DNA of 64,000 nucleotides, from the NCBI GenBank assembly GCA_963779615.1, contig CAVZZA010000003.1:960001-1024000 (forward strand), in the 5' to 3' direction. This document shows positions 9,768 through 47,748 of the stretch, one piece after another. A program made the position numbers and the translations under genes. Origin of the DNA: an uncultured Nitrososphaeraceae archaeon (GTDB lineage Archaea > Thermoproteota > Nitrososphaeria > Nitrososphaerales > Nitrososphaeraceae). Numbering within the stretch: position 1 is the first letter of the stretch; every line of letters starts with the position of its first letter. The notes beneath the pieces were generated by a model. It saw nothing but the letters and a program-made list of their open reading frames with translations, ran no database searches and had not been told where the DNA came from.

Positions 9768-9818
9768 ATGGTATGGGTCTTTTTAGGGCATAAATGCCAG
9801 TAACCTACAGTTTAAATA
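9768..9818 (+). repeat. att-like dispersed repeat, degenerate copy
   Basis: ATGGTATGGGTCTTTTTAGGGCATAAATGCCAGTAACCTACAGTTTAA aligns with the 20520 copy including the tail GTAACCT.CAGTTTAA. Confidence 0.55.
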
Positions 9819-10190
9819 ATAAAAAAATAGATAGATAATAACAAAAATATACAGTCAAAGCATCCTATATAAAATAAATTTAGTTTTATTTTGATAATCC
9901 CGGCATTTCTCCTTGAACTAAACTATAGCATTATTTATTGAGAGGCAATTAGATTTATTCAATAGGGATTGACAGTATGAAATGAATCAGTCATCTCATT
10001 CACAATGGGCAAGTATGACCCACGGGTGCTCAAGGCATTATGAATTTAATTCATATAATATTTAAGGTGATGTGTTCTATCACTACTTGGAGAGTATTCT
10101 TTTATTGACATGCATATAACAAAAAAAATTGAAGTGTTACCGTTATTTTTTATTATTTGTGTTTTCTTCACACAATAAAGATATTTGTTT

Positions 10191-11039
10191 TCAAGATGGT
10201 AATGAGGTGGAATTCACGGTATTGGATGATGTGGGTTTAGCTGTAAGGACAATTATATCGCCGAATGTCTGTCCATTATCTTGGCTAATTCTCATTAGAG
10301 GTGTATCTGACCCGCCTGTTCCTTTGTCCCACCATGTAACATATACACCATCCCCTAACGCCTCTATTTCGGTGCGCTCTGATGAAAATCCTTTTGACTC
10401 ACTTAGGTTGATATCTTTACCAAATGTTTTTCCACCATCGTTTGATGTCCTTATGAATACATCAGGCGTGTATGTTGTATCATTCAAATTACCTCCAGTT
10501 GCTACAACATATACTTTATCGCCCTGGGCTGCAACCTTGAGTTCATATGGCGATGTTTTATTCTTACCATACGACATGACTTCGGATGCGGGTGTTGCAA
10601 TAGCAGAGTTGGAATCATCAGTTAATTTTACTTCAGGCCCAAAGGTTTTTCCATTATCATTAGATACTCGAATGTAAGCATCAGCAATTCCTGTTTTATT
10701 GTCTGCATAGGTAACATATACGTTGTTACCTGATGCGGATATATCTGCCTCAACGGAGGTTCCATTTGTAGAGTTACTCAGGTTGATCTTGTCACCAAAA
10801 TTCTGTCCATTATCATTGGAGGCTTTGAACATCACCTCATAATTTCCAGTTTTATTTCCCCACCATGCAACATATACATTGTTACCCGATGTGGCGATGG
10901 GGGCTTTTCCATCACTCCTGTCAAGATGCGGCCAAGAAAATGCATACGATGATTGAACAGGCATTAGCGTTGTAGCAGAAGTTAGTATTGTCAGAAAGCA
11001 TAGAGATAAAATTATTTCTACCTTGAGTTTAATTTTCAT
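10191..11039 (-). CDS. Secreted Asp-box (BNR)/sialidase-like beta-propeller protein
   Basis: Signal peptide; four S.D.G.(T/N)FG Asp-boxes; SGNNVYV repeats. Confidence 0.88.
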   Translation of the reverse strand: MKIKLKVEIILSLCFLTILTSATTLMPVQSSYAFSWPHLDRSDGKAPIATSGNNVYVAWWGNKTGNYEVMFKASNDNGQNFGDKINLSNSTNGTSVEADISASGNNVYVTYADNKTGIADAYIRVSNDNGKTFGPEVKLTDDSNSAIATPASEVMSYGKNKTSPYELKVAAQGDKVYVVATGGNLNDTTYTPDVFIRTSNDGGKTFGKDINLSESKGFSSERTEIEALGDGVYVTWWDKGTGGSDTPLMRISQDNGQTFGDIIVLTAKPTSSNTVNSTSLPS

Positions 11040-11350
11040 TGATAATTCTATAAATCGGTATTATAAAAACAAATATTGATAAAAATACAATTTAAAATTC
11101 AATTTTTTTATATAAATCAAGATACAAATTGGCTTTATATTTGGAATGTCAAATACGTCTTTATCATACTCTTCAATTAAAGCCTAATTTCAGTACATTA
11201 TAAACCAGAGTTTGAAAACATTATAATAACTTTAAATTCCCTAATTGATGACTTTTTTATAGTTTTATGAGACACAATACATATTATCGAAAAGTTTGTA
11301 ATAATTTTATAAATTAATAACAATAATAATAATAATTGTAATTTTTATAC

Positions 11351-11397
11351 TGGCCGGGTCGTTTGAAGGCCATTTATGCCTCTAATCCATATTCAAT
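11351..11397 (+). repeat. att-like dispersed repeat
   Basis: TGGCCGGGTCGTTTGAAGGCCATTTATGCCTCTAATCC; GGCCGGGTCG matches the tRNA-Val 3' end (reverse complement). Confidence 0.7.
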
Positions 11398-11479
11398 CTA
11401 TACAAACATTACAGGATTTGGATTTACTTAATCAAATGTGTTTTTGATCGGAAAAAAATTAAAGTTATTGGTAACTGAA

Positions 11480-12460
11480 ATAGTATTGCATTTGACTGCA
11501 TCTGGATGAAATAAAAAGTTGGAGTTATTGCATTCTACAACTGTCATCCCATCATGGTAAACTGTTCTAAGGAGTTGCGAGGTCGTTACTCCTTACAAAT
11601 TCTGCTTCATATACAATAATCCATCTTCGTCAAGTATTGCAAGCGGTTTACTTATGTCCAGAATTGTTGGACGTGCCCTTTGATTGTCTACAAATAATTC
11701 CATAAATCCTTTTTGCGGTTCTTTTGACCATTTGACATGCAACTGCATTTCGTGCCAGTGCCCCTTTAGCATAGGTGCAATCCATTTGATCGTGCAATCT
11801 ACAGCAGAGGAGAACAAATGTCAGGTTCATGATAATGAAAATGGCTTAATACACGGTGAGAAATTGGATTATTGTCACCGTAAATGCAACAGCAGGCGTA
11901 CAACCCTCATGCGGAGGGCCTGCAATCTGGAGGAATAAACAACACCATCTTGATCATGTTGATGCCACCGGATCCAAACGTAAAATCTACCAGAACTATC
12001 GTAATTTGAGGAAAACAGAGTAACCAATGGACCATACATCATCACCGTCCTTGAAATGGTGGTCTGTATGATCTTGAAGGGCTTTTGTAAGAACTACTTC
12101 GGATCTTACCACTTTTATCCCTCTTGTATTTGGATCTGGCTTATCAACTATGGTTGTTCCATCGGGATTTGTTGCAAATATCTCTTTTTTAACTGTACGT
12201 TTAAAGATTTAGTGTGGCAGGGCGGTTTGTATCCAGTTTAATCAAGATTCACGGTGAGTAGCCTGTATCAACAGATGAAGGCACCTGGCATCCCCAAGTG
12301 CGCAGGTTCTGAAAGGCAGACCATCATCTTCGTTCTCTTTTTAAGAAAAGCATCATTGAGAGGGCTATTCAATACTCGAAGGATAGCAGCAGAACTGAAA
12401 GATTTGATGACTGTTTTGAATGTTTTCCATGCAAAAAGAAGAAATGCAGACTAGAGCATG
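11480..12460 (-). pseudogene. Polysaccharide-lyase-family pseudogene
   Basis: Frameshifted fragments VRSEV, FKDGDDVW, WIRWHQH, GHWHEMQLHVKWS..GFMELFVD, YMKQ, TVYHDG in the expected order. Confidence 0.7.
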
Positions 12461-12793
12461 TCACAAATTGGTTGCATTTTTTTTCTAGACTATCATAACA
12501 GGGAATTGAAAACGCTTAGGCGAACAGAGCCTATATTCCCAACTTTTAACACAGTAGATTCTGTTTTTGATACAACGGAAATTAATTTGTTAGTGATTTT
12601 GTTTTTATCATATTGCTATGAGCCTACTAAGATGGGCCGCCTATTGTAATCATTATGCATAAGTATGTGGTAACAAGTGGCGGAATATAGAACTTAGACA
12701 CAATACGACCATCGATATGGATAAGGATGAAATTATAATTGTTATAGACAATAATAGAAATAGTATTAAATATTATCAAAAAAATAACATGTA

Positions 12794-13735
12794 TTGGATA
12801 ATAAAGATAAAGAATCCACAAACAACATGCCAAATCTTAAAGATAGTACATCATCTCCTGAAAAATCAGAGTATGGTTTAATGTTAAACAAATTGTGCAA
12901 TATTGAAGATTGGGATAATGCAGAAATTAAAAAACTAATAAAAAAATTACAAACTACAACTGTAGAATCATATCTTTGTCAAAAAGACTGGTCAATAATT
13001 AAAGGTAATATTTTTCTTCCTCGAAAACTTGGAGTTATCCACCGAAAAGATTGGGAATGGTCTATGGGAATACTAGCTATGCAAAGACTAAATAAATTAA
13101 ACAAAAACAATACTGCCTTAGGAATAGGAGTAGGACGGGAAGAAATTTTATTTCATTTAGCAAACAAATTGAAACATGTCTACGCTACTGATCTTTATGA
13201 TGGAAAACAGTGGGAAAACTTTGCACCATCTGACTTCCCAGAAAATCCCAAAAAATACTCCCCAATTGCATACTCAGAAAATTCTTTGACCGTGTTACGA
13301 ATGGATGGTACCCGTATAAATTTTCCCCCTCAAAGCTTTGACATTGCATTTTCGTTCTCATCGATAGAACATTTTAATGGTGAAAATCATACGGGTGCCC
13401 TTAAATGTTTAAGAGAAATGGAAAGGGTATTAAAAAAAGGGGGAATCGCCATAATAACAACTGAATTTATAATTAATGATAAAGATCATCATGAGTATTT
13501 TAATAGAGATACAATACATTCTCACCTAATAAATAAGCTAGATTCATTAAATCTAGTAGAGCCTCTCGATTTACGAATAACCTCAAAAACAATGGCTACA
13601 ACTATGGACTATTCCGATTGTGTTTATTGGGATACTTCAAGTGATGATTATTTCAAGGCTATGAATCCTCTAATAGTCATTAAACTTGGAGAAATAGTCT
13701 ATACGTCAGTAATGCTTGTTTTTCAAAAAAAATAA
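12794..13735 (+). CDS. Class I SAM-dependent methyltransferase
   Basis: LGIGVG motif I, ATD, FDIAFSFSSIEH, RVLKKGG. Confidence 0.88.
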   Translation: MDNKDKESTNNMPNLKDSTSSPEKSEYGLMLNKLCNIEDWDNAEIKKLIKKLQTTTVESYLCQKDWSIIKGNIFLPRKLGVIHRKDWEWSMGILAMQRLNKLNKNNTALGIGVGREEILFHLANKLKHVYATDLYDGKQWENFAPSDFPENPKKYSPIAYSENSLTVLRMDGTRINFPPQSFDIAFSFSSIEHFNGENHTGALKCLREMERVLKKGGIAIITTEFIINDKDHHEYFNRDTIHSHLINKLDSLNLVEPLDLRITSKTMATTMDYSDCVYWDTSSDDYFKAMNPLIVIKLGEIVYTSVMLVFQKK

Positions 13736-14176
13736 CCCTTTCGAATGTTGTCCATCGGGAATACTTGAGGAATGCACATTCTGGCGTTTTTTGATTTTAT
13801 TAAATATTGTTTTATCATATGCATGAGACTAAAACATTTGAAATTATTCAATTTAGAATGCGCAAACTTGTCGTCCTTTAAGATTTTTAATGCTAATTAA
13901 TTAGGCTCTGAAGAAATATTTTATTTCGATTCAAAGATAGGTGAGTTAACGATGTAATAGGAGCTATCCAGAATTGCCTGTCATTTAAATTGAAAGGACA
14001 GAGTCAAAGAAATTTCCGTTAATATATCAAGACAAAACTTTCTATGCCCCAGATGATATTGCAAAGGGTATCAAGAGAAATGAGGATGAAAAGGATCCGC
14101 ATCCAGAAAATTTTCATGTTTAAAATGGGTTATTACCCCATGGTTATACAGCAATTGTTTTGCAATTTTGATATTT

Positions 14177-15355
14177 TTAATTAAATTCAACAATTTCAAT
14201 CCAGTTTGGGTCTTTACCTGACTCATACCTATTCAAGAGTTTTAATTCACCAGTTTCTTGATTGATTGCATGTACAGATACATGACCTGATTCCTGCCCT
14301 CCTGCAATCACAAAATTACCCCTAGGATCAACGTTAATACCACGTGGCGTCTTTTCAGTACCATAACTTTCAATGTATGTCAAATTCCCCGAGTGACGGT
14401 CAACAGCAAATGCAGCAATTGTACTAGTAGATCTTTCGCTTACGTATAGCCATTTGCCATCAGGCGTAATGTGAATATCTGCAACTCCAATAGCAGTAGA
14501 TTTCCCATCCCCCATTCCTGGCGCGGCATCTCCAGCCGCAGGAGTTGATGGTTCAAGGCCTATGTCAGGAGGCATTGCCGAAATTCTCTGGATTTCAGTT
14601 AAAATCCCTGTCTTGTTATCCATCTTGTAAGAATAAACCATACCATCCATTTCATTCGATACATAAACAAACCTGTTATTTGGCGAGAAATCAAAATGCC
14701 TTGGTCCAGAACCATCTTTAGTGTAAACAACAGATGGAGCGTTTGGTGTAAGAACTCCATTGGATTGATTAAACAAAAATTGTTTTATCTGTGCATTTCC
14801 CAAATGAGGCACATACACAAATCGATTTGACGGATCAACTAGAATTGAATGGGGATTATGACCTGTGGAAATTACCTGAACAGGTTCCGATTGAACAAAC
14901 CCCTCAAGGCCTATTGGATTCACAGCAATTTTGGCATTTGCGTCATTATTTGATACTGATAAAAGAAAGCGGCCCGTTTGATCCACTGAGATGTATACCA
15001 TGTTATCGGGTAATGATTCTTTAGAGAGCTGAGTCAGGTTACCTGTCTCTGAATTAATCAAATAGGTAATCACTGAAAAAGGTTCTGAACGAACAGAGGC
15101 ATAAAGGAATCGATGATCTGGGCTCAATGCCATATGCTTTACATTTGGTCCAGCAGGTACCTTTTCCACTATTTTCATATCACCGGTTTCAGGATTTAAC
15201 TTCATGACTACAATCTGTCCATCTTCGCCATTAGAAACATACACAAATGTTCCTTCTGAATAGGATTTATCTATTCCCATAAATAAAATTGGAATCATTA
15301 GCACTGCCACAAAGATTGGAATCCTAAAATCAAATCTAGTTTTCTTTTCCGTCAT
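14177..15355 (-). CDS. Lactonase family beta-propeller (6-phosphogluconolactonase Pgl-like) with N-terminal anchor
   Basis: PHSI, GSGPRHFDF, ADIHITPDGKWLYVSER, TPRG motifs; start at MTEKK. Confidence 0.9.
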   Translation of the reverse strand: MTEKKTRFDFRIPIFVAVLMIPILFMGIDKSYSEGTFVYVSNGEDGQIVVMKLNPETGDMKIVEKVPAGPNVKHMALSPDHRFLYASVRSEPFSVITYLINSETGNLTQLSKESLPDNMVYISVDQTGRFLLSVSNNDANAKIAVNPIGLEGFVQSEPVQVISTGHNPHSILVDPSNRFVYVPHLGNAQIKQFLFNQSNGVLTPNAPSVVYTKDGSGPRHFDFSPNNRFVYVSNEMDGMVYSYKMDNKTGILTEIQRISAMPPDIGLEPSTPAAGDAAPGMGDGKSTAIGVADIHITPDGKWLYVSERSTSTIAAFAVDRHSGNLTYIESYGTEKTPRGINVDPRGNFVIAGGQESGHVSVHAINQETGELKLLNRYESGKDPNWIEIVEFN

Positions 15356-15477
15356 CCATAAATCGCTATTGCATCTACAAGCAGTATAAATAAAATTCTT
15401 GCGTGAGCCAACAAAAATTCCAAATGGATGTATCAAAATCTGATTGATTTCATTTCACAGACGTGGGTGAAGGCTGG

Positions 15478-15678
15478 ATTGGCGGCAGGGTTGACATAAT
15501 CACCATCTCTGTAGATACGATCATTTTCTTTTTCTCCTTCTTCTTTGATATCCAATTTTCAATTCATGTCGTAGCCTGCATTTCAGACAATTCCTTAATA
15601 TTGTTGGCTCTGAGCCTATAAATATAATCAAATTTGTAATGGACCGGATTGTTTGCAGTTTCTTTATGCCTGTAACCC
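15478..15678 (-). repeat. Copy 1 of about 200-bp module: att-like site, TATA-like promoter and very short integrase start
   Basis: 15537-15589 identical to 20418-20470 (53 nt); att-like motif at 15639. Confidence 0.9.
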
Positions 15679-16009
15679 ATCAAGTAACAAAAATGGTGGA
15701 GATTCATCACAAAATGTTTTATGTTTTATTTTACCTCATACCATCATAAATAGAAGTTTTGTAGTATCGATCTATGCATAGTGTAACCTCAAAGATATCA
15801 AGAATATCGACCTTCATAATTCTATAGTGAACAGAGTTGAATATTTTTAATATACACAAAATTTAGTATTTTAAGATAAGATCATTCCAAATTGCTATCC
15901 TTTTCTTTATACATTTTTTTCCAATTACTTTTTCAATTAGATAAAATTGAAAATATAAAAGCGAGATAAATTAATAGCAGATAAATTTCCAAATATAAAA
16001 GATCTATTT

Positions 16010-16381
16010 CTAAACCTCTTCTTGTTTTGTCCCGCATCTTATGCAGAACTTGGATCTTAGGTTAAGTTTTGAGCCACACTCGATGCAAAATTTTGATTCT
16101 GTGGTGGCGGTTAGTTTATTTGGAGCAGTTATTTTTGGCTCCGTTATTGTACTGGACAGTTTAGGCAAAGTGGTCTGAGACAAATCCCTTCCACTTTCGG
16201 CACTCTCTTCTCCTTTAAGATAAAGCATTATCCTTGGAACCACCTCCTTTCCCTTGGGATCATATACCTGTTCACACAGCCATATAACAAATTCTTTTAG
16301 CGTTAAATCAGGTGTAGAAAAGCCAAGAGTATGAGCAGATATGTATTCCTCGACTGCAGATCTACCGTTGAATGCTTTCAT
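16010..16381 (-). CDS. Protein with C-terminal double zinc ribbon
   Basis: KFCIECG..SKFCIRCG. Confidence 0.8.
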   Translation of the reverse strand: MKAFNGRSAVEEYISAHTLGFSTPDLTLKEFVIWLCEQVYDPKGKEVVPRIMLYLKGEESAESGRDLSQTTLPKLSSTITEPKITAPNKLTATTESKFCIECGSKLNLRSKFCIRCGTKQEEV

Positions 16382-16781
16382 TCCCGAGTATATTATATAC
16401 CTAATCTGGTTGATAACCTTTAATTGAATCTAATGCCAGTATGAAAATGCAGGTTTTATTTTAAATTAGATTGTTTGAATTATTTGTTGATAATTGTAAC
16501 GATAGGCCAACATCTCAATTTTAGAGTCGTCAAGTTTTTTTTTGGAACAAATGAACTTGCTCATTATTATAGTCCCAATTCGAAAATTTATTTCCCATGC
16601 AACTAATTTTTCTTTTGATCCCTTTCCCCTAGACTTTTTGATACATTGTTGATAGAAAGTACTTGAGAGATCAGTTGAATGAACAAGATTAACCTTGTAT
16701 CTCATATTGGCCTATTCCTCCCCTGGGCCGTTGTGATAAAGCCAAATAGTAAAGATAAGAATTTAAGCGTAGGACATACTT

Positions 16782-17075
16782 ATGATCATGGACAAAACAT
16801 CCAATTCTGGGGATGACAATGGAGCCCGTCACAATGTTGAAGGTTTTGTATTAGGCAGACTATCATCCAAACATGACTCAGGAGGCGACCCTTTAGTCGG
16901 CATTGGAGATTTGATGGATTCCATAGACACTACAATGTCTCCCCTACTAGATCAAGCAATTGAGGACTTGGTCGCTCAAAGCCTGATCCAATCTCCGGAT
17001 GGCGAAAACTACCAAATTACTCAGGATGGGATTAATGAACTAGAAAATAGGAAGAGAGAGGCAATACCACTTTAG
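16782..17075 (+). CDS. Small protein, possible winged helix
   Basis: AIEDLVAQSLI..YQITQDGINELE pattern typical of a wHTH wing. Confidence 0.6.
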   Translation: MIMDKTSNSGDDNGARHNVEGFVLGRLSSKHDSGGDPLVGIGDLMDSIDTTMSPLLDQAIEDLVAQSLIQSPDGENYQITQDGINELENRKREAIPL

Positions 17076-17339
17076 TTACAAAAACTATTTTTATATAACC
17101 CAACTCAAAAGTTAAGACAAATTAGTAGAATATACAGATAGGAATTTTGGATATTGGAGATAAACAATAATTATTCTATTTTATTTTGGTGAACATTAAT
17201 GGAAACTTGCACTGTTTGTTTTAAAAAATGCGAATTAATCAAGATTAAAAACAAGCATCTGATCCCACAAAGCAGACACTATCCAAAATTTGTATTGATT
17301 GGCTAAACATATGCTTTGATGAAAACATCCTATAATTCT

Positions 17340-17684
17340 TTACACGGATTTCTTTAATTTATCGCTTGGAAATTTGATCATATTCTCCTTTTCGCGATTA
17401 AGATCGTCATCTGTCAAGTTGATTGCAGAAATTATTGTTGAATTATTCTCATCACTAAAGCCTTCGGTAAAAATGATCACATGTAATGAAGACTCTAAAA
17501 TGTCTAATATAGAATCATCAAATGGCGGTAATTTCAGCTCAAGATCTTTTCCTGGAATAACCGAACCCAAGTTATCGACATCAAGCAAAGTCACATTCAC
17601 TTTGTTCTTTTGCTCATTTATGCTGTTTACCTTTGCAAACATTAAGCCATCAGCATATGTATGGGCAATCAAACTAATAAACAA
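17340..17684 (-). CDS. Hypothetical protein
   Basis: 114 aa ORF with normal composition; antisense ORF looks like a shadow. Confidence 0.6.
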   Translation of the reverse strand: MFISLIAHTYADGLMFAKVNSINEQKNKVNVTLLDVDNLGSVIPGKDLELKLPPFDDSILDILESSLHVIIFTEGFSDENNSTIISAINLTDDDLNREKENMIKFPSDKLKKSV

Positions 17685-17874
17685 GATTCAATCTGTCGAC
17701 AGCTATACTCAATAACGATTATCAGATGGCAAACTTCGATGCCATAGAGGCCTATGGTTATTTCATAGATCTTGCTGGATAAAGTTACTCAATAAACGAC
17801 CATCAGTACTTTGCTCTATTTTGTGATTCCATCTTCTAGTTCTCTTTTGGCCTTACCTTTTCAACCAAACAAAG

Positions 17875-18333
17875 TCAACTGCTATGATAATAGTGATCAA
17901 TGGAATCAACTGTGGGCTGTATCTCACTTTCTTTTTTAACTACCTCCAGTATCTTGTTCCATATGTGCTTCTCAAACTCATATGCCACTATACCTCCAAC
18001 CGTAGCCCCTGCAGCAAGACCGATAGGTCCCCCAACCAAGAGTCCCACAGCACCTGTCCAAATAAGACTTCCAAACCATGCACCAGATGCCACCTCAATG
18101 GCATAATCATCCGGGTTGCCTGTCACGGATACATGAATCTCGCGCAAAGACCCTGCCCACACCTTAGGGGATTTATTTACGGCCACAATACTGCGTAAAG
18201 GGATAGAATTCATGGTTCCTTTGTATTCTGAAACAATCTCGATGTCCTTTTGAATTTGTATTTCTTGCTTTATGCTATCATATAGTTTGTCCAGGTTTGT
18301 GCTAAGACCACGATAATGCTGTACTTTTGCCAC
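17875..18333 (-). CDS. Conserved hypothetical protein with glycine-zipper hydrophobic segment
   Basis: GAVGLLVGGPIGLAAGATVGG; GTG start at 18333. Confidence 0.75.
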   Translation of the reverse strand: MAKVQHYRGLSTNLDKLYDSIKQEIQIQKDIEIVSEYKGTMNSIPLRSIVAVNKSPKVWAGSLREIHVSVTGNPDDYAIEVASGAWFGSLIWTGAVGLLVGGPIGLAAGATVGGIVAYEFEKHIWNKILEVVKKESEIQPTVDSIDHYYHSS

Positions 18334-18364
18334 AAAATTAAGTTTAAAAAGACACATTTAAAGC

Positions 18365-18700
18365 ATTAGAAAGGGTTTCGCTTTTTCTTCCGAAATCAGA
18401 TGCGCTTTACCTTGAATAATCACAAAAAACGAATTTGCTCCAATCCTCATCATATTCATCTATTAGTAATGCAGCATTTTGATTGGTATGAATGTTACCA
18501 ACTTTTTTAGCTTTTAAACTGTTTGTTCTTTTCTTTTACTATCTAATGGTATATAATAATGGTGCCCATCAAATGCAAAAACCACAGGTACTATAGGGGG
18601 CATTTGCTTATCATAATCAATCAAAGTCTAGCTACTCTTGCCCTGTTTACCATTACTTGAATAAAAACACAATTGTTCATACAATTACCTTGTAATCTCA
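18365..18700 (-). pseudogene. PPOX-class F420-dependent oxidoreductase (Rv0121-like) pseudogene
   Basis: Fragments RVARL, PIVPVVFAFDG..YIPLDSKRK, NIHTNQNAALLIDEYDEDWS, VIIQGKA with frameshifts. Confidence 0.75.
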
Positions 18701-18996
18701 CATTATTTACCGTATTATTATTTACTTATAGTGATTCACAATAATAGAAAGTAGGGCCATAAGTTGTCACATATAGAAATGATATCAATGAGTATTTTGA
18801 AGAATTTTGCATGTTATTTAGGGTATGTTTTTTAATCCTAAATGACAAAAATTGGTAAAAAACCTAAAAAGTTCCTTTTTATATGACTAATAAATTTCAA
18901 AACGATACTAACATAATAACAACGAAAGGGATTGGCGGACATACAAGAATAGAAGCATAAAAAAAAGTTAAATAATCATCCAGAAATGGAAATACC

Positions 18997-19758
18997 ATGT
19001 TAAAATCAAAGGCAAGTGTATTTCTTGTCATATTTTTATCTGTTGTGTTTCCCACTAGCTCATTGCTGGCAACCAAAGGAAATGAAACTTTTGTAGATCG
19101 AAATATGGTCAATATGAATTTCAATATTTCTGGTTTGGTATACGATTTGAATTCGACACCTTTCAATACATCATATGCGGACTGGACTGCAAAATGGTGG
19201 CAATGGACATATTCCATTCCATGGAATAAGAATCCCTCATACGATGACACTGGAAAATATTGTGGCGAAAATCAGCATGGACCGGTTTGGTTCCTAACAC
19301 TTGCTTTTGAACATCCAGTTGAACGCACTTGCCATATACCTCAAAATACGGCGTTGCTAATCACATTATTAAATTCCGAATGTTCGTATGTGGAGTACAA
19401 ACATCTAGAGACCGAAGAAGAATTAACAGATTGTGCTAAAAAAATGCAGGATGTTGTGAGTGGAGCAGAAGCATCACTTAATGATATTACTATACCTAAT
19501 GTAGCAAAACATCGTATTCAGACAAATTTATTTGACTTTACATTGCCCCAAGATAATATACTGAATTTAACTGCTCAAACAACACAAGCTGTAGCCGATG
19601 GAAACTGGCTTTTTCTAAAACCGCTCCCACCTGGCAAGTATGAGCTGAAGGTAAAAGGAGAAATAGACAGAGTCTCTTCAAATGAGTTGGGCGGTAACGA
19701 ATATAACGGACCAATTGGATGGAATCAAACTACCACATACATCTTATGGGTTAATTAG
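18997..19758 (+). CDS. Secreted conserved hypothetical protein (WWQW..GPVWFL family)
   Basis: Signal peptide; WTAKWWQW, GPVWFL, ADGNWLFLKPLPPG motifs. Confidence 0.85.
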   Translation: MLKSKASVFLVIFLSVVFPTSSLLATKGNETFVDRNMVNMNFNISGLVYDLNSTPFNTSYADWTAKWWQWTYSIPWNKNPSYDDTGKYCGENQHGPVWFLTLAFEHPVERTCHIPQNTALLITLLNSECSYVEYKHLETEEELTDCAKKMQDVVSGAEASLNDITIPNVAKHRIQTNLFDFTLPQDNILNLTAQTTQAVADGNWLFLKPLPPGKYELKVKGEIDRVSSNELGGNEYNGPIGWNQTTTYILWVN

Positions 19759-20229
19759 CATATTATTACGGTCATTTTTACCCCGGTTGTGCTCCATATT
19801 TTTTTGATCTGGACTAAAGAGTGAATATCGACTGTTTTTATAAAATCCTGATTATAAGGTAAGCACGAACTAGTCAGCATTGAAAAAGTAGCAAAACTTG
19901 CTTTCTATCTTTTTTTTCCTACATCTGCTCTATTTTACTATTCATATTTTACGTTATTATATTAAACTGAGACACACTAACCACCATTTTCAGCGAATAT
20001 GAAATATGATGATTGTCACCTAAATTGATATAATATTATAGATTGATATCCTATATTATATACCAGCCATACGAAAAGAATTGCAATATATAAGGTCGAT
20101 ATCGGTATTATCAAGATTTATTATTATGTTATTCTAATTTTTAAATTATTTTCTATAATTTTTTTTATTTAGTTTTTCTTTTTATTTCAAGTATTATATA
20201 TAATCACATATGAGATCTCATCAAAAAGA

Positions 20230-20436
20230 CTACATTTTAAATTTATATAACCAACACATTGTCTTCAAAGGTACCTCCAGACCCAGAAAATCATGGAAAA
20301 CATCCAATCTTTTAGGATATTGCCTATTTGTTTCAGAGGCCTTTAACACAATTAAAAAATTGGCAACAGGATCAGCATAATTATCTTCTCTGGTGATATC
20401 ATCATTTTCTTTTTCATCTTCTTCTTTGATATCCAA
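20230..20436 (-). pseudogene. N-terminal fragment of a Nitrososphaeraceae-type tyrosine integrase
   Basis: DPVANFLIVLKASETNRQYPKRL matches DPLQQFLYALRAPETKRQYPKRL at 47311-47652; catalytic domain absent. Confidence 0.75.
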
Positions 20437-20570
20437 TTTTCAATTCATGTCGTAGCCTGCATTTCAGACACTTTCTTACTATTGTTGGCTCTGAGCCTAT
20501 AAATATAACCAAATTTTCAATGGGCCGGATCGTTTGCGGGCCATTTGTGCCTGTAACCTGCAGTTTAACT
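20359..20570 (-). repeat. Copy 2 of about 200-bp att/promoter/integrase-start module
   Basis: Matches 15478-15678; att-like motif ATGGGCCGGATCGTTTGCGGGCCATTTGTGCCTGTAACC at 20520. Confidence 0.9.
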
Positions 20571-20583
20571 ACAATAACAATCC

Positions 20584-20960
20584 GGCTCTGTTCATTTAAG
20601 CACTTTCTCGTTGCCATGGTGATCTACAAACAGGTGGATCCGGTTTTTTGCATGCTTTAGTTTACAGTTCCTTGTCCACCATGGAAAATAATAATCGTTA
20701 AACCCCTTTTGGCCCTACCTTTGATGCATCAGTCATTCTCTCTATCAGGCTTTTCTCAAATTGAGAATGAATGCGATGATCTACTTATCACTACAGGCTT
20801 GGGCAGGATGCCCGCTAGCCATGGTCACCGTCATCCGTTGTTAAAACCGAATACTTGCCATACTTATTTGTCAACAAGAAGGGATAAAACGTTCCGCCAA
20901 AACCATACTTCTTTCAAAGACAAACATTAATCTGAAGAATTCATACAGGCTCTATCTAAA
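20584..20960 (-). mobile_element. Highly decayed IS6-family remnant (3' part and terminal IR)
   Basis: IR GGCTCTGTTCATTTAAG at 20584; fragments ERSMVLAERF, PQAC, IHSQFEKSLIER, FNDYYFP align with the 27.1-27.8 kb transposase. Confidence 0.8.
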
Positions 20961-21038
20961 TAGAATCCATCTTCGCAGGACAGGCATTTTGGGAGCCAAC
21001 CATAAGGAGTTTCCTTTTTTAGTAAAATATTTACAACA

Positions 21039-22517
21039 TCAATAACCAGGCAATGACCCTAGCCTTACCGCTTTAAATATCACATTACCATTTATGTTTA
21101 TTCCAAGCGTTAGCAGATCGCCAGGTTTTTTTGCCCCGACTTGTTTTGTGAGATCACTTGGTTTCCCTATTTCTTTTCCGTCTGCGGATATTATTACATC
21201 CCCTTTTCTTGTTAGATATCCATTGCTATCCACATCTAAAATAGCACCGTTTAATCCCACCCTCTCAGCTGGACTATTGGAAACAACAGATTGAATCAAT
21301 ATCCCTTTAGTGTGTTCAGGTAACCCCATTTCTTCTAATGTTGATGGCGACAAGTCAGTTACAGAAACACCCAGCCATGGAGTTGAAGATGCCAAATAGA
21401 CTCCTGAATTGTTACCCTCATGATTTTCACTTTTGCTTTTTTGACTTGACAGTATATATGGCGACAATTCGTGTGCGTTGGGTTGGGTTTCATCCTTTAA
21501 CTGCAGCTTTTCCATCAACGAAACAAATGACAGGAACTGTTTGTCGTTAATGTTAGACAAGTAATCGCGAATCACATGGCTGTTTGTGTTACGCCATATC
21601 ACTATCTCATCAATCCCTTTAGTTTTGTTTGCTATTGACAATGTGGCGAGGATCAATCGATCTGATGGTGGATCATATCCTTGTTCAGCAAAATTGGATG
21701 TTTTTGCAGTGTACAGTACAAACTTTAATGGCTTTTTATGGAACACTTTGGAAAACGTATCCAGATTATGCTGAAGATCAGCCACACTGTAATAGTTTGA
21801 GCTAGCCAAAACAATGCCATCAGAATAATCATAGAAATATTTTTTGACATCATTTGTACCCAGTCCCTCAAGGTAAACAACAGGAAAAAAATTCAAATCA
21901 TTTCTTTTGTGTTGTAGCGCCCTATCTAGTTTTGACTTTATCATAAATTTGACGTTTTCTTGTATCTTTTGCTTTCCATCAAGACCGTCATCTTTTTTAT
22001 CCTTGCCTTCACTGGGGCCAAACCAATTAAAGTCATCTATCACAAAACCATAAAGGGAAGGGTGACTTGACTTTAGCAAATTGAGATACTTTATCCACCC
22101 CTCCCAATCATAATCACCATTTTCTCCACCTTCGGAAGGGGGCAACAATATTGGAATCATCCTCAAAGTTGTATTGTCGGCGGCACCCAAAAGACTGGCA
22201 GTTTGAGATTGTTTTGATTTGGATTTGTAATCTTTGAGCACAAAATAATATTCTTTGTATCCCTGTTTTAACAGCAAATCCATCGCCATTATTTTGTCAT
22301 TGCGGTTTGGGAGAGACTCCAAGGGAAATTGATTTGATGTCCATGCACCAAAACTTGCAATTTTTGGTTGACTTATGGTTGAATTTGTTCCTAGTTTGAT
22401 ATTATCGGCAAGTCCATAAGCTTTCACACAAAAACAGGGTATTGATAGCCATGACATGGAATAAACAAGCCCTGCTGCAAAAATAACCAAAAAAACAAGA
22501 CAATAATCCAATTTCAT
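21039..22517 (-). CDS. Secreted protein: glycoside-hydrolase-like barrel fused to C-terminal PDZ domain
   Basis: N-terminal TM; GFVIDDF motif; HtrA-type PDZ (PWLGVSV..GILIQSV..SPAERVGL..GDVIISADG). Confidence 0.8.
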   Translation of the reverse strand: MKLDYCLVFLVIFAAGLVYSMSWLSIPCFCVKAYGLADNIKLGTNSTISQPKIASFGAWTSNQFPLESLPNRNDKIMAMDLLLKQGYKEYYFVLKDYKSKSKQSQTASLLGAADNTTLRMIPILLPPSEGGENGDYDWEGWIKYLNLLKSSHPSLYGFVIDDFNWFGPSEGKDKKDDGLDGKQKIQENVKFMIKSKLDRALQHKRNDLNFFPVVYLEGLGTNDVKKYFYDYSDGIVLASSNYYSVADLQHNLDTFSKVFHKKPLKFVLYTAKTSNFAEQGYDPPSDRLILATLSIANKTKGIDEIVIWRNTNSHVIRDYLSNINDKQFLSFVSLMEKLQLKDETQPNAHELSPYILSSQKSKSENHEGNNSGVYLASSTPWLGVSVTDLSPSTLEEMGLPEHTKGILIQSVVSNSPAERVGLNGAILDVDSNGYLTRKGDVIISADGKEIGKPSDLTKQVGAKKPGDLLTLGININGNVIFKAVRLGSLPGY

Positions 22518-22897
22518 TTTTAAAGAAATTATTCTTCCAATACACAGGAATCAGAAAATGACCAATTTATTTTTAACTGGCATTTTATCGCGTATACCTC
22601 TGAGAATTTGAGGTTTTCCGACTTTGGAGGTCCCGAAAACAAATTGATTTTTTCTAATTTCAACTCACCATTATCACTTGTTATAATGGGCTTAATTCTC
22701 AAACAACATCTTGATTCCATTAAGGAAATCATATTCTTAATGTCATAATAATAACTATAAGACATGACTTTTAGAACAGTGGTTTTAATAGCACGCCATA
22801 ATCAAATGAATGATCTTCAAAAAAGAGATTATTGCTGTTGGGTGCGATCTTTTTAGTAATTACAACTTTAATTTATGAATGCTGCAATTGTTTTTTT

Positions 22898-22947
22898 CGG
22901 GTGGTTTGCAAGCCATTTATATGCCTTTAATCCAAAATTTGATTAAT
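22898..22947 (+). repeat. att-like dispersed repeat
   Basis: CGGGTGGTTTGCAAGCCATTTATATGCCTTTAATCC. Confidence 0.65.
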
Positions 22948-23062
22948 GAAAAGAATAATACGATTTTTTTAAGTGTAGTCCAGATTCATATTGTTAACGG
23001 ACAACTTTGAGTTTTAATTAATCATCAACGAAAAAACAGTTAAATGTTAAAATAGTTCAAAA

Positions 23063-23080
23063 ATGGGTCTAGTGGGATTG
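23063..23080 (-). other. Possible tRNA 3'-end remnant
   Basis: Reverse complement CAATCCCACTAGACCCAT resembles AATCCCAC....CCCA. Confidence 0.3.
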
Positions 23081-23713
23081 GTGATGATACGGGTTCTTAA
23101 AAAGGAATCTATTGTTTTATTAGGTGAATGGTAATTTTAAAGTTTATCAATTTTAATATGCTTTTTCTATGTCAATTTGTTAATTATTAAAAAGTCTTTA
23201 AAAGGTGCAAAGTCTTGCCATTAGGGGAGAGACTGCACCACCGGACAATGGGGGCAGAAACAGGGAGATAAACAGGGCAAGGTCGCCGTAGGAGCCTAAA
23301 GACCACGCTGACCTTGATTTAGGTGCTGGAGAGTCAGAGGAAGAACCGCTGTCGCTCAATGAGGATTAACAAAGTAGTACTGCTCATAACCTGTAGCATT
23401 TGCAGGCATGCTCAATTTATTGCATGGTTGCGAATGTTGCGTCTACCGCAACTGCAAGAGGGATCCTTGGTTTGCATACACCAATAAAGAATCTGGTAAA
23501 GTCTTGACCCGGGAGTGATCTGCTGTGCCGGATTCATCATTGCCTCATAGGGATAAAGACGTGTTTAAATGCGGCTGCCAAGGGCAATTATGATCGTAAA
23601 ATAGCAAACAAAGTCATCCTGTTTGCCAAAAAAATAGGTTTGTATTGGCTGACAGGCGGTGGCTACTGTTTGCCGGCCTTCTATAACGTGTTCCCGGTTT
23701 GGCAAGTGGCAGG

Positions 23714-23935
23714 TCAGGGGTTCAGGAAAAACACTTGGATACTGTTGTTGCCAGAATCAGCTACATACACGTTGCTTGTTGCGGGATTAACGGTCACTTC
23801 TACGGGAAACATAAACTGGCCGTTGCCGGTACCAAAGGATCTCCATTTCGCTAAGAAGTTGCCAGTGATGTCAAACACCTAGATGCGGTTGTTGCTGGTA
23901 TCTGCCACATACACGTTGCCTGTTGACAGTTCACG
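23714..23935 (-). pseudogene. NHL-repeat gene fragment
   Basis: TGNVYVADTSNNRI*VFD..FGTGNGQF..NVYVADSGNNSIQVF; homologous to the 43693 C-terminus; internal TAG. Confidence 0.85.
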
Positions 23936-24044
23936 GTCCCTTGGTGATAGTTGGCAACTGCCATGTGGTGAAGCAGCTGCAGCTGCTGCACCCAAGGCTT
24001 TGACTGCAACGCTTATGCATAACCATCAGCTACAACTCCCGTTT

Positions 24045-24689: not shown

Positions 24690-25332
24690 ACTGCTTAGAT
24701 AACATCACCAAATAAACTATATAGACTATATATACATTCTAGGGCGCATGTGAAGCCACATGAGAGGTTAACCGAACATGCGCCATAGATTGGTGCAACG
24801 CGGCAGGGACACCAGGGTCGAGGGAAACAGAAGGTTTACAGGGTAGCAAATGAGTTACTCTGAGGCACTCTTCATGGCACAGGCGTTTCACTCCTTGACT
24901 GGCTGGCCGGAATAGCGGTCAATCCCTAGACTCAGGACACGCTCGCCTTCAGCATGATTTCTGGTGAGGTTCATGGATGAGGCATTTTCCCTGGAGCGTG
25001 CAGCAGCACAAGCCTACGCTCTAATGTTGAGTGGCAGGGCACGGTTTAGGGCTGTCCTTGCAGCAGGGCATTAACTACAACAACTCAAAACCCTTAAAGA
25101 CTCTAGGACGTTGTCGCCCTTAAAGCAGCCTGAGAGTAGCTTTTGTTCAATGGCAGGGCTCCTAGCAACCGGTGAAGTGGCTGCCTGGCCTCCACCACAA
25201 GACTGTTCACATCAAGGCCAGATGAAAGTGCGGAACCAAAGAATGTATGTGACCCGAGTCTTGGTTACAAGTTTGACTGAAAAATAAGGGCTTATGGACT
25301 TGCCTGTGAGAGTATGGCAATGAGAAAATAGG

Positions 25333-25680: not shown

Positions 25681-25723
25681 TTCAAATAATTACAATAAAT
25701 TGATGATAAACTGCAATTTGTAT

Positions 25724-27801: not shown

Positions 27802-27814
27802 TTATTATCTATGA

Positions 27815-28690: not shown

Positions 28691-28736
28691 TTCAGAATAT
28701 CACTTATCCATTTGCCCTTGCAGAGTGTAAAATTAT

Positions 28737-39848: not shown

Positions 39849-40428
39849 GTGTGTTAAATTTTTGCAGGAACAGGTCAACATTGTGGCCTCAGCCACATGA
39901 CATACATGCTGTTTCAATGTAATCTTTACTACATCGCATTTATCAAATGAACTGAATTGAGAGTAAAATGATAGAATAATTATATTTCATTTTTATTGAT
40001 CATATAACATTAAATGTCGTTGACATAAGCAGGGTCGGACATGTATCAAATTTGTATGTAATCGAGTTTATAAGATTAACTTTTTTTATATAAATAAATA
40101 GGAAGATTTGATAATTATTTCATTAAAATAAACTTTACAAATTCAATAACAAAATAAACCTAGATATGGACTGGACTATTTAGTTCTGCCGGGGTTCATA
40201 TTTCAATTTTTACGAAGAAAATCTTGTTGATTTTATTAGTGTGACTTATTAGTTTTATAATGAGATTGTGTAAAGTAAATAGCCTACATCGGGCCAGTGG
40301 GGATAAAGATTCAGATTTGAATGTAATCTTTTTTACTATTTTGCAACGACTTGAATTCTTATTATAATAATCATGATAATGACCTTAACGATTTAGTTAA
40401 GATAATTGAATCTTGCAATGTCATTGGT

Positions 40429-40470
40429 ATGGGCCAGGTGGTTTGCACGATATTTTTGCCTTTGATATGA
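40429..40470 (+). repeat. att-like dispersed repeat
   Basis: ATGGGCCAGGTGGTTTGCACGATATTTTTGCCTTTGAT. Confidence 0.65.
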
Positions 40471-40706
40471 ATATGACAAATTCTAAGGAAGAAATAAAAA
40501 TGATCGATACATGTTCATTTCAAATATTATTTTTCCAACTAAAATATAATGGATTTTAAAATGATTATGAAGATGAAGTTTTATTGAATCTTGACTCTAA
40601 AGTATTTTATTATTACAACTTGAATAAAACTTTTTTTCTTTGAATATAGACTGCAGATAGTTGCAAAAGGCTACTGCTTTTTAACTATTAACATTCAATA
40701 TATGAC

Positions 40707-43494: not shown

Positions 43495-43692
43495 TGGTTG
43501 AGTCAAGGGTTGATGTTGTCAAGGATGGCTAATTATGGGATTGTCTGGAACTGAAGAGATGCCGTAAATACTCCCCCTGATTTGTTTAGTGTCAGCGTTA
43601 TGCTGTTTTTTGTAGGATAATAAACACAAAATGAAATTGCAATGTCAAATGCCCTATTTCATATAAACTGAAAACTTGACAACCTTTTATAT

Positions 43693-44778
<1,086 letters not shown>

Positions 44779-45072
44779 CACCCAACCATGATCTTGTTTG
44801 GGACTGTGCAACGGGAAACGGCCAGGCTGCAATTGGTTTGTGCAAACACTTTAAAAAAATAATAGCAAGTGACGCAAGCAAAAGCCAAATTGATAACAAA
44901 TTTGAAAGGGAAAACATAACCTAAGTATTTCCGGCTGAAAAAACAAGCTTGCCTAACAATTGCTTTGGTTTGCTGTTAAAAGGGGATAGTTTTAAAAAAA
45001 ATTCTTGATTCTGTTGCCCAATACATTCTCACCACCACCACTACCACCTTTCTGCACAGTAACATCCTGTTT

Positions 45073-47298
45073 CTAGCAGGAGGTGCTAGTTTCGACATGG
45101 CATTGTTTTGCTGTTTTAGAACTGTGTTCTCCTTCCCATTCGTAACTTTGGGTATTGTTATTTTTTCTGACAACCCAAAAATCATAGTTTCCGCCGTCAC
45201 GGTCCCCTGCGCTGTTGAGTTTTATTTTGCCTGTTAGGCCATCAAATGACTCTGCGGTTTCAAAAACAATCTCCTTAAATGGCTTGGTTACGTTTCCAAT
45301 GTTGTTATTGTTCAAGGTATCATTTTTATAGAGGCTCAGCGAGGCTACCCAATATGAGTCATAGGCTGTTGCCGGATATGATATCGAACCTGCCTCATGT
45401 AACTCCTTGTCCAGTGCTTTTTTTAGGTCCAGTGTTTTTCCTGACTCACTATCTATCGAGTACAGGGGATTAGTAAAATTGGTTTGCATCGCAAAAAGTG
45501 CCGAATCACCATTCTTTGTTACGTGGGGGTTTTGTGCTATTTTATCGGCGCCATACCATCTCACCTTTCCCAATGTCTCATAAAGGGGCGCTTGGATCAA
45601 AATGGGTGTTATCTCGTCATAGGACACCGCATATACCCCCACAGATTTGGGCCCATATTTTTTTACCGAGTCAGAGACAATGGCATCTAATTTTTTTATT
45701 TCCTGGTTCCACATCAGGAAATTGATTCGGTGCAAGCTGGTGGCAAAATTCCCTGTATGGGGTTTATAGTTGACACCCGGTTCTACCTTCCCTCCCAGTT
45801 TCTCAAATTCGGACTTGGTGGCCTCATAAAGCCCATTTCCATAGATATCTCCCCTCCAAAACGGAACAATGACCTTTATGCCGTCCTGAATCATCCTTTC
45901 GGCAATTATTTTTCCCTGGTGTGTGTCGTCTGGAACCAGTCGAAAAAGGTTGTCTCCCTCTATGGAAAGTGATGGCGAAGTGCTGGCATAGCTGATTAGT
46001 ATGATGTTGTTTCTGTCAGCATACTCCTTTACTGCTGCTACCGCAGTACTTGTTGCCGGACCTATGATGATTTTTGCGCCATTCTCATGCAGTTTTTTTA
46101 TCGCCGTCAAACTTCCTTCCGCACTTGTCTTTGAATCAGCCATAAGGAGATTAAAACGGAATGAGGAATTGGCGATGTCCTGAAAATGCTTGTTCACGTC
46201 ATATTCAGCTTTTTCTAATGCCACCTTGATGGATTTGCCTATCGAGGAAAAGGAGCCGGTATAAGTAAAGATGGCGCCAACAACAAATTCCTTTGCTCCT
46301 TCACCATTGTTTGGAGATGATGGGGAAGATGGTGACGATGAGGATGAGGAGGGGTTTTGAATGCTGGATGCCTTTTTACTGATGAAATACTTGTCATCGC
46401 TGTTGGTGAAGGCATTTGTGGAGTACAGGCCAGCAACTATCAAAAGGGATGCCATGATAAAGGAATAAAGCAACATCCTTTTGGAGGCTCGATTTCTCAT
46501 GATTGACACAATCCTGTAAACAAGGTCCTTTGACTGCCATTTGATGTGGTGCCGCAGGTAATACACAATGCCTCCCGCAATCAGCAGGTAATGCGCGGAC
46601 AACAACAGCGCGGAGATCCATAACTGCTCAACAAAGGCAGTCAGGACAACAACCGCAAACCAGCTGTCTCCCACAACTACCGACAAAAGACCAACCAGTT
46701 CGCATACCCATGGGATAAAGTGGTGCCTTTCCTTCTTTATTTCAAGGAGGATCATCAAAGCCAGAACCGTCAAAACAGAATTTAGCGCGGGGTATGCTAT
46801 TGTGACAACAAAGAGCATAAGGCCCCTGAAGCTTGACGTTTCGTTCAGGGATACAGTCAGGTACAGTATGTATGCCAAAAACAGGCCTGAGCCCAAAATC
46901 AACAGGGAAATGACTTTCTTGTCTGTGATGTGGTCCAGACTTCTGTATGTTACCACTAGCCTGTATATCAGAAACCCGTATGCGGACAGCAGGAATATAT
47001 CCGCCAGGGAAGGGACGGGGGATACGACATCAAGCGCTATCTCATAATATCCCCAGACTATGTTCGCCAGAAACCACAAGACAAGGCCAAATGTCAGGAA
47101 AATTAGTGTTTTGTCCCTTTTGATGCTGACCCTGTCCTTAAGGAGAAGAATTACGGAAAGCCCTGCCGCAACAAGGGAGTTTATTATCAGCATCCAACTT
47201 GAATAGATGATTTTGCGGCTGGGTTCAGCGGAAACAATGATAAAATTTGCCGTGATGATCGCAATAATCACCGCCAAGAAAAAATACAGGGCCTTCAA
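45073..47298 (-). CDS. Multi-TM membrane domain fused to LivJ-type (branched-chain amino acid) substrate-binding domain
   Basis: About 9 hydrophobic segments then IIIGPATS, LISYASTSPSLS, NLFRLVPDD, YGNGL, AYDS, GLTG.IKLNSAGDR. Confidence 0.88.
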   Translation of the reverse strand: MKALYFFLAVIIAIITANFIIVSAEPSRKIIYSSWMLIINSLVAAGLSVILLLKDRVSIKRDKTLIFLTFGLVLWFLANIVWGYYEIALDVVSPVPSLADIFLLSAYGFLIYRLVVTYRSLDHITDKKVISLLILGSGLFLAYILYLTVSLNETSSFRGLMLFVVTIAYPALNSVLTVLALMILLEIKKERHHFIPWVCELVGLLSVVVGDSWFAVVVLTAFVEQLWISALLLSAHYLLIAGGIVYYLRHHIKWQSKDLVYRIVSIMRNRASKRMLLYSFIMASLLIVAGLYSTNAFTNSDDKYFISKKASSIQNPSSSSSSPSSPSSPNNGEGAKEFVVGAIFTYTGSFSSIGKSIKVALEKAEYDVNKHFQDIANSSFRFNLLMADSKTSAEGSLTAIKKLHENGAKIIIGPATSTAVAAVKEYADRNNIILISYASTSPSLSIEGDNLFRLVPDDTHQGKIIAERMIQDGIKVIVPFWRGDIYGNGLYEATKSEFEKLGGKVEPGVNYKPHTGNFATSLHRINFLMWNQEIKKLDAIVSDSVKKYGPKSVGVYAVSYDEITPILIQAPLYETLGKVRWYGADKIAQNPHVTKNGDSALFAMQTNFTNPLYSIDSESGKTLDLKKALDKELHEAGSISYPATAYDSYWVASLSLYKNDTLNNNNIGNVTKPFKEIVFETAESFDGLTGKIKLNSAGDRDGGNYDFWVVRKNNNTQSYEWEGEHSSKTAKQCHVETSTSC

Positions 47299-47310
47299 TA
47301 GTTCTCTTTT

Positions 47311-47652
47311 TCAATGACTATTAATATGTCTTGTAAATTTTTTTGTAAATGTTATCATATGGCATGACAGAGAATGTTGTTTGCAGGGCACCTTGAGCCA
47401 TTCGGGATCTTTCTGAATTTTCTCTTTTAGTGTTTTTGCCTGCTGCTTTAGGTCTTCCCCATTGACATTTGCAAACTCCATGAACATCTGTAGCCTTTTG
47501 GGATACTGCCTCTTTGTTTCAGGCGCCCTCAGAGCGTAGAGAAATTGCTGCAGCGGGTCGTCATGCTCATATGCGTTACTGTTTTCCCGATACGGTGAAA
47601 AAACTCTTTCGCTGTTGTTCAATCCTGATGTTTTTGTTGTGTGGCGGGCCAA
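47311..47652 (-). pseudogene. Tyrosine integrase N-terminal fragment immediately downstream of tRNA-Val
   Basis: DPLQQFLYALRAPETKRQYPKRLQMFMEF; truncated at about 47390. Confidence 0.8.
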
Positions 47653-47673
47653 ATTTGAGAACTATTAACAATA

Positions 47674-47748
47674 TGGGCCGGGTCGGATTCGGACCAACGA
47701 CCCCCGCCACGTCAAGGCGGTATCTTAACCAGGCTAGACCACCGGCCC
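47674..47748 (-). tRNA. tRNA-Val(GAC), intronless, CCA not encoded
   Basis: Acceptor GGGCCGG/CCGGCCC, anticodon stem CCGCC/GGCGG with loop TTGACGT, T stem GTTGG/CCGAC; upstream TTTTATATAA box. Confidence 0.93.

Follow-up and report, generated by a model that had tools for sequence, protein, structure and literature searches.

A probable tRNA-Val-anchored genomic island of eroded integrative elements in an uncultured ammonia-oxidising archaeon

A 64,000-nucleotide stretch from an uncultured Nitrososphaeraceae archaeon (assembly GCA_963779615.1, contig CAVZZA010000003.1, positions 960,001 to 1,024,000; hereafter the window, with position 1 at its first letter) contains seven copies of a short motif resembling an attachment (att) site, all located on the same side of an intact tRNA-Val(GAC) gene. 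The region from 9.8 to 47.7 kb is quite probably a genomic island anchored at this tRNA gene, produced by repeated site-specific integration (tandem accretion) of related elements and by their later erosion. This reading draws on the anatomy of the sites, the presence of tyrosine integrase fragments, an intact relative of the integrase, the restriction of the motif to one genus and the polarity of the arrays, all of them directly observed. The host assembly comprises 3.17 Mb in five contigs, is 92.5% complete and has about 35% G+C, and several of its tRNA genes contain introns; such a size and G+C content would suit Ca. Nitrosocosmicus as a possible genus. Since the genome encodes an archaeal AmoA, and the window encodes NurA, CDC48 and TruD, the host is an ammonia-oxidising archaeon.

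Junction motif, tRNA core and integrase fragments

The tRNA-Val(GAC) gene (47674-47748, - strand; ARAGORN, and Rfam RF00005 with 55.2 bits) is intact at one end of the array, where it would be the integration target (attL side), and all motif copies are at lower coordinates, which correspond to the 3' side of the tRNA. Its end contains a 13-nt core, ATGGGCCGGGTCG (core O; 47673-47685, + strand), which corresponds, in reverse complement, to the final 12 nt of tRNA-Val and one nt downstream, and which is identical to the direct repeat closing a 56.8-kb interval in the related genome G011. The initial annotation, made from the sequence alone, had described seven co-oriented copies whose left end resembles the 3' end of tRNA-Val. 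Alignment and an nhmmer profile built from the seven copies show the same picture, with all of them on the + strand, and extend the likeness to the 13 nt of the core, with one to six mismatches. The profile matches in the window start at 9767, 11345, 15635, 20516, 22898, 25721 and 40426, with expect values (E) from 1e-14 to 2e-8. Junction A (9767-9824), the most distal copy, shows four mismatches to the tRNA core (E 1.8e-8), junction B (11345-11407) shows two (E 4.9e-13), and junction C (15635-15694), whose left flank has a TATA stretch similar to an integrase promoter, shows three (E 2.1e-11). Junction D (20516-20578) is the best-preserved copy, with only one mismatch (E 1.1e-14), and in junction E (22891-22953) the core is largely destroyed, with six mismatches (E 9.9e-9). 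Junction F (25721-25782) has three mismatches (E 3.2e-11) and junction G (40426-40487) has two (E 8.6e-10). The tRNA core is no longer matched exactly in any of the seven copies. Past the core, the motif is an AT-enriched and diverged look-alike of the T-arm region of the tRNA, and the copies named F', X and Y, located on contig C2 of the same assembly, retain more tRNA-like letters in this part. The T-loop of tRNA-Val (window 47690-47700) reads TCCGAAT here and in the related genomes G018 and G011, and G020, G012 and G015 have the usual TTCGAAT. The genomes also differ in the anticodon loop, and both differences are probably lineage variation.

In the whole 3.17-Mb genome, the profile gives 14 matches with E < 1e-6 and nothing further below E = 0.1: seven in the window (all +), six on C2 (all -) and one at C3:187541. 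One additional C2 copy, with a right arm of another type, was found beyond these 14. As had been expected of an array of att sites, the copies are clustered and co-oriented, not scattered. A 19-nt sub-pattern of the motif gives four matches against 0.06 expected, a number reached in none of 100 shuffles; a strict 18-nt degenerate pattern was dropped as too loose, since its forward and reverse counts were about those of the control, and the nhmmer profile was used instead. The motif is short, intergenic and repeated, and it has a weak GGCC...GGCC inverted repeat inside, all of which would suit a miniature inverted-repeat transposable element (MITE), a repetitive extragenic palindrome-like repeat, a structured RNA or a regulatory element. 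However, 14 of the 15 copies (13 of the 14 profile matches) lie in two polar clusters, the tRNA is the only Rfam match at gathering thresholds, the consensus fold of the seven copies has -0.73 kcal/mol and four pairs, and the position of the motif relative to the neighbouring genes is inconsistent. An origin of this kind is extremely improbable, and the distribution of the motif effectively refutes it. The match at C3:187541 is part of a solitary attP-like piece of about 130 bp (C3:187490-187616) with an integrase-promoter flank, core and arm, which is far from tRNA genes and beside other repeats and an insertion sequence (IS).

Integrase gene starts are located on the left of three sites (C, D and the tRNA), on the - strand and reading away from the core, which lies upstream of the start at a distance of about 22 nt at the tRNA and about 85 nt at D. 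The initial annotation had already noticed an integrase start beside two motif copies and beside the tRNA; the starts at D and at the tRNA are confirmed, and a short remnant is present at C. The fragment next to the tRNA (47311-47652, - strand) is the N-terminal part of an integrase in a 113-aa frame, with 41% identity to aa 5-73 of the G011 integrase (E 4e-16); its homology reaches about aa 87 and the rest is unrelated. At D (20230-20436, - strand) there is an N-terminal fragment of 68 aa, with 49% identity to aa 6-52 of the same protein (E 3e-13) and homology to about aa 55. The N-terminal remnant at C (15433-15555, - strand), of about 41 aa, abuts the start of a lactonase gene and shows 65% identity over 26 aa to the D fragment by tblastn. 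The truncation points differ (about aa 41, 55 and 87), the D and tRNA fragments are about 44% identical to each other, and the fragment at the tRNA is 61% identical to one located beside an att copy in G020. The integrase sequences of the window are thus N-terminal fragments only, which bears out the proposal that the integrase copies of the window are all truncated: Pfam gives no PF00589 match among the 92 window frames of at least 75 aa, and tblastn detects no integrase catalytic-domain remnant or C-terminal fragment in the window or on C2. Units A-B, D-E, E-F and F-G, named after the junctions on their two sides, show no integrase trace.

The genome contains two intact, full-length integrase paralogues, one at tRNA-Ala(TGC) and the other at tRNA-Arg(GCG). 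The window fragments are 45-49% identical to the tRNA-Val integrase of G011, versus 25-33% or no match to these paralogues. Among partial integrase copies genome-wide, the N-terminus is kept in 12 and absent in only two, a bias which would be expected if deletions eroded the elements from inside while the tRNA side was protected. Three co-oriented integrase remnants are also found within 7 kb at C3:820-827 kb. In the reverse complement of C2, positions 10306-11060 contain a frameshifted integrase fragment (aa 20-219), closest to the paralogue at tRNA-Ala(TGC), which adjoins sequence like the 3' end of a different tRNA; from its sequence, it may be the remnant of an element with another tRNA specificity inside the array on C2.

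The flanks of the junctions are of several kinds. The left flanks of C and D are 88% identical over 157 bp, and identities of 84-94% over 64-220 bp link the flanks of C, D, the C2 copy D' and the solitary C3:187541 copy. A second recurring left-flank type, without integrase trace, is present at some copies (z 4-12 versus shuffles). At least four subtypes are distinguished among the right arms, and each is shared between species. The similar left flanks, together with the duplication of 20 kb of the array on C2 (90-98% identity), would agree with copies arising by segmental duplication of one att junction and its flank, with no separate integrations. Nevertheless, the sequences between the copies are unrelated to each other, each right-arm subtype is shared with other species, and identity between the integrase fragments of D and of the tRNA is only about 44%, so that duplication is a most improbable source of the array.

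Related genomes and origin of the array

Among the other genomes of the genus the motif model matches 15 of 24, and outside it, weakly (E 0.005), only one of 16 genomes from other genera of the order. An intact relative of the integrase, which the initial annotation had recommended looking for, is found in G011 at the same tRNA: a 426-aa protein encoded directly behind tRNA-Val, with 27.8 bits to PF00589 (Phage_integrase) against a cut-off of 27.1 and with no name in NCBIfam. In this genome the 13-nt core is repeated perfectly in one further copy, in the same orientation and 56.8 kb away (C6, 496493 and 553304), and the inner flank of the distal repeat contains the conserved ...TATAATCTACA box of the motif. 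Two large proteins without Pfam matches and several transposases are encoded beside the G011 integrase. Small co-oriented arrays are present on the same side of tRNA-Val in G018 and G020, and G012 shows one core repeat at 3.9 kb from the tRNA. In G015 no further core copy with three mismatches or fewer was found within 20 kb, and a lactonase unit is still located 2.8 kb from the tRNA. The units of the relatives contain lectin-like, deacetylase, ion-channel, methyltransferase, NHL-repeat and sensor genes, and no integrase.

The junctions of the window had been interpreted as att-type sites which one tyrosine-integrase family left behind when it integrated repeatedly at the tRNA-Val 3' end, and the integrase fragments together with the intact G011 element support this interpretation. 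According to it, an intact element would encode, beside its attachment site, a tyrosine integrase of about 420 aa, which would recombine a core of 13-19 bp, covering the end of tRNA-Val(GAC) and the few bases that follow it, with an identical chromosomal sequence. This would regenerate the tRNA and place the integrase gene directly behind it, and a core copy with the other arm of the element would stand at the far end. A newcomer would enter at the intact tRNA and the older elements would be displaced outward, each internal junction then being composed of the arm of the newer element, the core, and the arm of the older element with its integrase start, which would give the motif of 45-60 nt. 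Decay through deletions and through IS and MITE insertions would have taken the catalytic parts of the integrases and most backbone genes, so that accessory genes would remain, separated by fossil att sites. From this arrangement we infer the order of events, the position of the crossover and the present inactivity of the sites. The small size of the units looks like the result of decay of larger elements, since the only element seen with an intact integrase is in the 56.8-kb interval of G011 and since signs of decay are present.

Repeats anchored at tRNA genes are not limited to tRNA-Val. The last 14 nt of each of the 35 tRNAs, with one mismatch allowed, were searched in the 80 kb downstream of the gene. 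Same-orientation repeats are found at 11 of the 35 tRNAs, with a total of 24 copies and at most four per tRNA, a number reached behind Ala(CGC) and behind Gly(CCC), and the flanks of the repeats are conserved within each tRNA array. For the 35 tRNAs, no repeat is found with the reversed core used as control, on the upstream side or in the opposite orientation. With criteria this strict tRNA-Val(GAC) also gives zero, since the match of its mutated copies extends over only 13 nt. Examples of such sites are C3:523250 (tRNA-Ala CGC), C3:1138829 (tRNA-Gly CCC), C5:409726 (tRNA-Ser GGA) and C3:264819 (tRNA-Met).

Contig C2 (29,784 bp) matches window positions 20297-41870 at 90-98% identity and shows the same order of junctions, D-E-F...G. 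The copies X and Y, located between F' and G', are absent from the window, and a copy Z is found further on; the core is perfect over 16 nt in each of the three. C2 and the window part at 27130, 34833 and 41870, in no case at a motif, and the first of these points is the end of a MITE. The tRNA-proximal end of C2 is different, and the contig starts with an IS copy which is 99.8-99.9% identical to copies on C5 and C3. C2 may be a second locus, or else a strain variant that was co-assembled.

Contigs assembled from four metagenome runs were compared with window positions 9001-29000 at a likeness of at least 90%. The best run contains 0.25 of the words and none reaches half. Gaps in cover and depth are uninformative in such contigs. 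One contig of 701 nt (X2) joins position 20558 to 25839, with 71 other letters between them: it contains the left flank and motif of D followed by the region on the right of F, and units D-E and E-F are absent. Two other contigs (X3) match the window from 20520 rightwards and differ to the left, exactly from the first base of the D core. Two further contigs (X1) run past 27130 with letters found on C2. Two joints, 15473 to 25677 and 18964 to 26937, were set aside as weak, their sides being only 21-23 letters long. Strain differences can therefore end at the motif, in contigs that are few, of low depth and from other strains. The expectation that strain breakpoints would coincide with the motif held in part: the breaks between the window and C2 are at IS or MITE sequences, while the X2 and X3 contigs break at D.

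Several results weigh against accretion at the tRNA as the full account. This assembly (92.5% complete) contains no intact cognate integrase, and no clean empty site was found among the relatives compared. The 56.8-kb interval of G011, of which about 26 kb was inspected, may itself be composite. Units without integrase trace are the majority both here and in the relatives, and the second left-flank type could equally mark small elements that never had an integrase. The X2 and X3 contigs indicate that recombination at internal sites occurs or did occur, which accretion at the tRNA alone does not predict.

In an alternative reading, the units are integrase-less cargo modules between att sites, similar to integron cassettes or to the cis-mobilisable elements of streptococci, which the integrase of a visiting element would excise, insert or co-mobilise in trans at any core copy, the array being a working platform for gene shuffling. 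The loss of D-E and E-F at motif positions in X2, the divergence of the X3 contigs at 20520, the perfect 16-nt cores of X, Y and Z on C2, the common left-flank class without integrase trace and the recurrence of integrase-less units of 0.5 to 10 kb in G012, G018, G020, G004 and G010 all suit it. On the other hand, the cores are mutated in all seven window copies, several units are multi-gene, gene orientation is mixed, and the breaks with C2 at 27130 (a MITE insertion), 34833 and 41870 are away from the motifs. Moreover, the integrase remnant fused to the lactonase gene indicates that deletions cross unit borders, and the contig evidence consists of one or two low-depth contigs, which homologous recombination between repeats or lineage sorting of an ancient array would also yield. 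This alternative is judged unlikely. A wider formulation, in which the units are exchangeable modules, the integrase of a visiting element recombines any surviving pair of cores and moves accessory blocks, and a tRNA-anchored exchange of this kind operates genome-wide in the genus at no fewer than 11 other tRNAs, is considered rather unlikely. Tandem accretion followed by erosion is the preferred reading, and within it mobilisation in trans is possible.

Units and their cargo

The units delimited by the junctions and the tRNA are 1.6, 4.3, 4.9, 2.4, 2.8, 14.7 and 7.2 kb long. One intact gene per interval had been proposed for some of them, and this holds only roughly: the intervals range from 1.6 to 14.7 kb, with genes on both strands, several genes in some units and many short broken frames, and they also carry fragments of IS240-type transposases and a MITE-like repeat of 200 bp. 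Unit A-B contains a gene encoding a BNR/Asp-box repeat protein (10191-11039, - strand; Pfam PF02012 and PF24316). Unit B-C contains genes encoding a methyltransferase (+ strand) and a seven-bladed lactonase (- strand) between 12794 and 15436, both assigned by Pfam. Unit D-E contains a gene encoding a 492-aa PDZ-domain protein (21039-22517, - strand; Pfam PF13180). In a search for this unit across the genus, the PDZ gene is found only once elsewhere (G003, 67%), and most other matches are to the 200-bp repeat.

The block of distinct composition reported between 22.9 and 25.7 kb is recovered in unit E-F (23000-25700), which has 42-52% G+C over a window background of about 35%; this unit shows a broken gene at 23936/23937 with a deletion of 907 bp relative to C2. 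A MITE-like repeat with fragments of an IS240-type DDE transposase (27131-27749, - strand; Pfam PF13610) is located at the point where the window and C2 diverge. The MITE-like repeat, of about 200 bp and starting with GGCTCTGTT, is present in the window at about 20583-20800 and at 27131-27349, and shows many copies in the genome and in the genus. The cargo nearest the tRNA (43693-47298), with 41-51% G+C, comprises genes encoding an NHL-repeat protein (+ strand) and a 741-aa protein with a periplasmic-binding/ANF-receptor domain (- strand), assigned by Pfam. The G+C-rich blocks at 23000-25700 and 43500-47500 (41-52%) contain members of the NHL-repeat family, which are also found on C4 and at C3:1122-1123 kb.

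The lactonase of unit B-C has counterparts near tRNA-Val in G020 (87%), G012 (68%) and G015 (71%) by blastn. In the window, the integrase remnant of junction C is joined directly to the lactonase gene; in G020 the lactonase occupies a separate unit, which is flanked by att copies at both ends and has an additional 1.9 kb of sequence. Since the remnant abuts the gene here, and the G020 unit is longer and has a separate att copy, a deletion crossed the unit border. The position of the lactonase near tRNA-Val in three relatives led to its consideration as the native chromosomal border of the array. This was rejected, because a further att-type copy with three core mismatches and a clear arm is found beyond the lactonase in G020 (L002, position 4582). 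Judged from these sequences, the lactonase is old cargo inside the array.

Comparison with known systems

The array had been likened to an integron loaded with cassettes, and this part of the initial annotation does not hold. Co-oriented recombination sites between cargo genes and the chemistry of tyrosine recombinases are common to both, but the array shows no resident intact integrase, no attI-like site and no common promoter, its cores are mutated, its units are multi-gene with both gene orientations, and the motif does not form the folded hairpin of attC sites (consensus fold of -0.73 kcal/mol with four pairs). In the 'suicidal' archaeal integrases of the SSV (Sulfolobus spindle-shaped virus) type, the att site is inside the integrase gene, which is partitioned on integration. 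An archaeal host, a tRNA target and integrase fragments left in the chromosome are shared with that type; in the array, by contrast, the core is upstream of the integrase start and no C-terminal halves are present at the far ends of the units, so that the fragments come from deletion and not from gene partition. Streptococcal cis-mobilisable elements (CIMEs) are att-flanked units without recombination or transfer genes, presumably derived from larger elements by deletion and placed in tandem with elements of the same site, and their mobilisation in cis has been shown experimentally. Units A-B, D-E, E-F and F-G are likewise att-flanked and without integrase, whereas their cores are mutated. Gene capture in Sulfolobus is a further comparison. 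The array fits a known kind of structure, and in the defining features that were tested it does not match integrons, MITEs or SSV-type partitioned integrases.

In a survey of integrated elements of Thaumarchaeota, the att sites are short, with a median of 17 bp, tRNA genes are the target of 39 of 68 elements, with insertion almost always at the 3' end, and the elements with tyrosine recombinases form arrays by re-use of the site, most elements being cryptic and carrying accessory cargo (Krupovic et al. 2019, PMC6563490). Its main text does not mention Nitrosocosmicus. The array described here is similar to these elements in its ammonia-oxidising archaeal host, its target at the 3' end of a tRNA and its core of 13-19 bp. 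It differs in that the survey presents single elements or pairs with recognisable integrases, while here eight att copies (the seven junctions and the tRNA) delimit seven remnants, most of them integrase-less. In the tycheposon islands of Prochlorococcus, as described by Hackl et al., elements are located side by side with a partial tRNA copy between them, newcomers displace the older elements inward, and fragmented integrases and partial tRNAs remain (bioRxiv 10.1101/2020.12.28.424599). Both systems use many different tRNAs, 11 of 35 in this genome; the tycheposons have a bacterial host and att sites of typically about 40 nt of true tRNA sequence, whereas here 13-16 nt are identical and are followed by an AT-rich look-alike arm. 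Regeneration of the target with displacement of its fragment is also given as a principle in the Islander abstract (PMC4383910). No published description of this array was found in a literature search.

The array shows an ammonia-oxidising soil archaeon with an unusually large genome which gathers and keeps accessory genes behind its tRNA genes, among them lectin-like, PDZ, lactonase, sensor-kinase and UV-endonuclease genes. For the fragmented metagenome assemblies of the genus, the conserved junction motif offers a practical means of delimiting islands and units. Since the mechanism is already established in bacteria and archaea, the value of the array is in cataloguing and in evolutionary history, and it would be greater if the units were mobilisable in trans. 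If the units were exchangeable modules, such a genome-wide exchange system would be the equivalent, in archaea, of CIME accretion or of the Prochlorococcus tycheposon islands.

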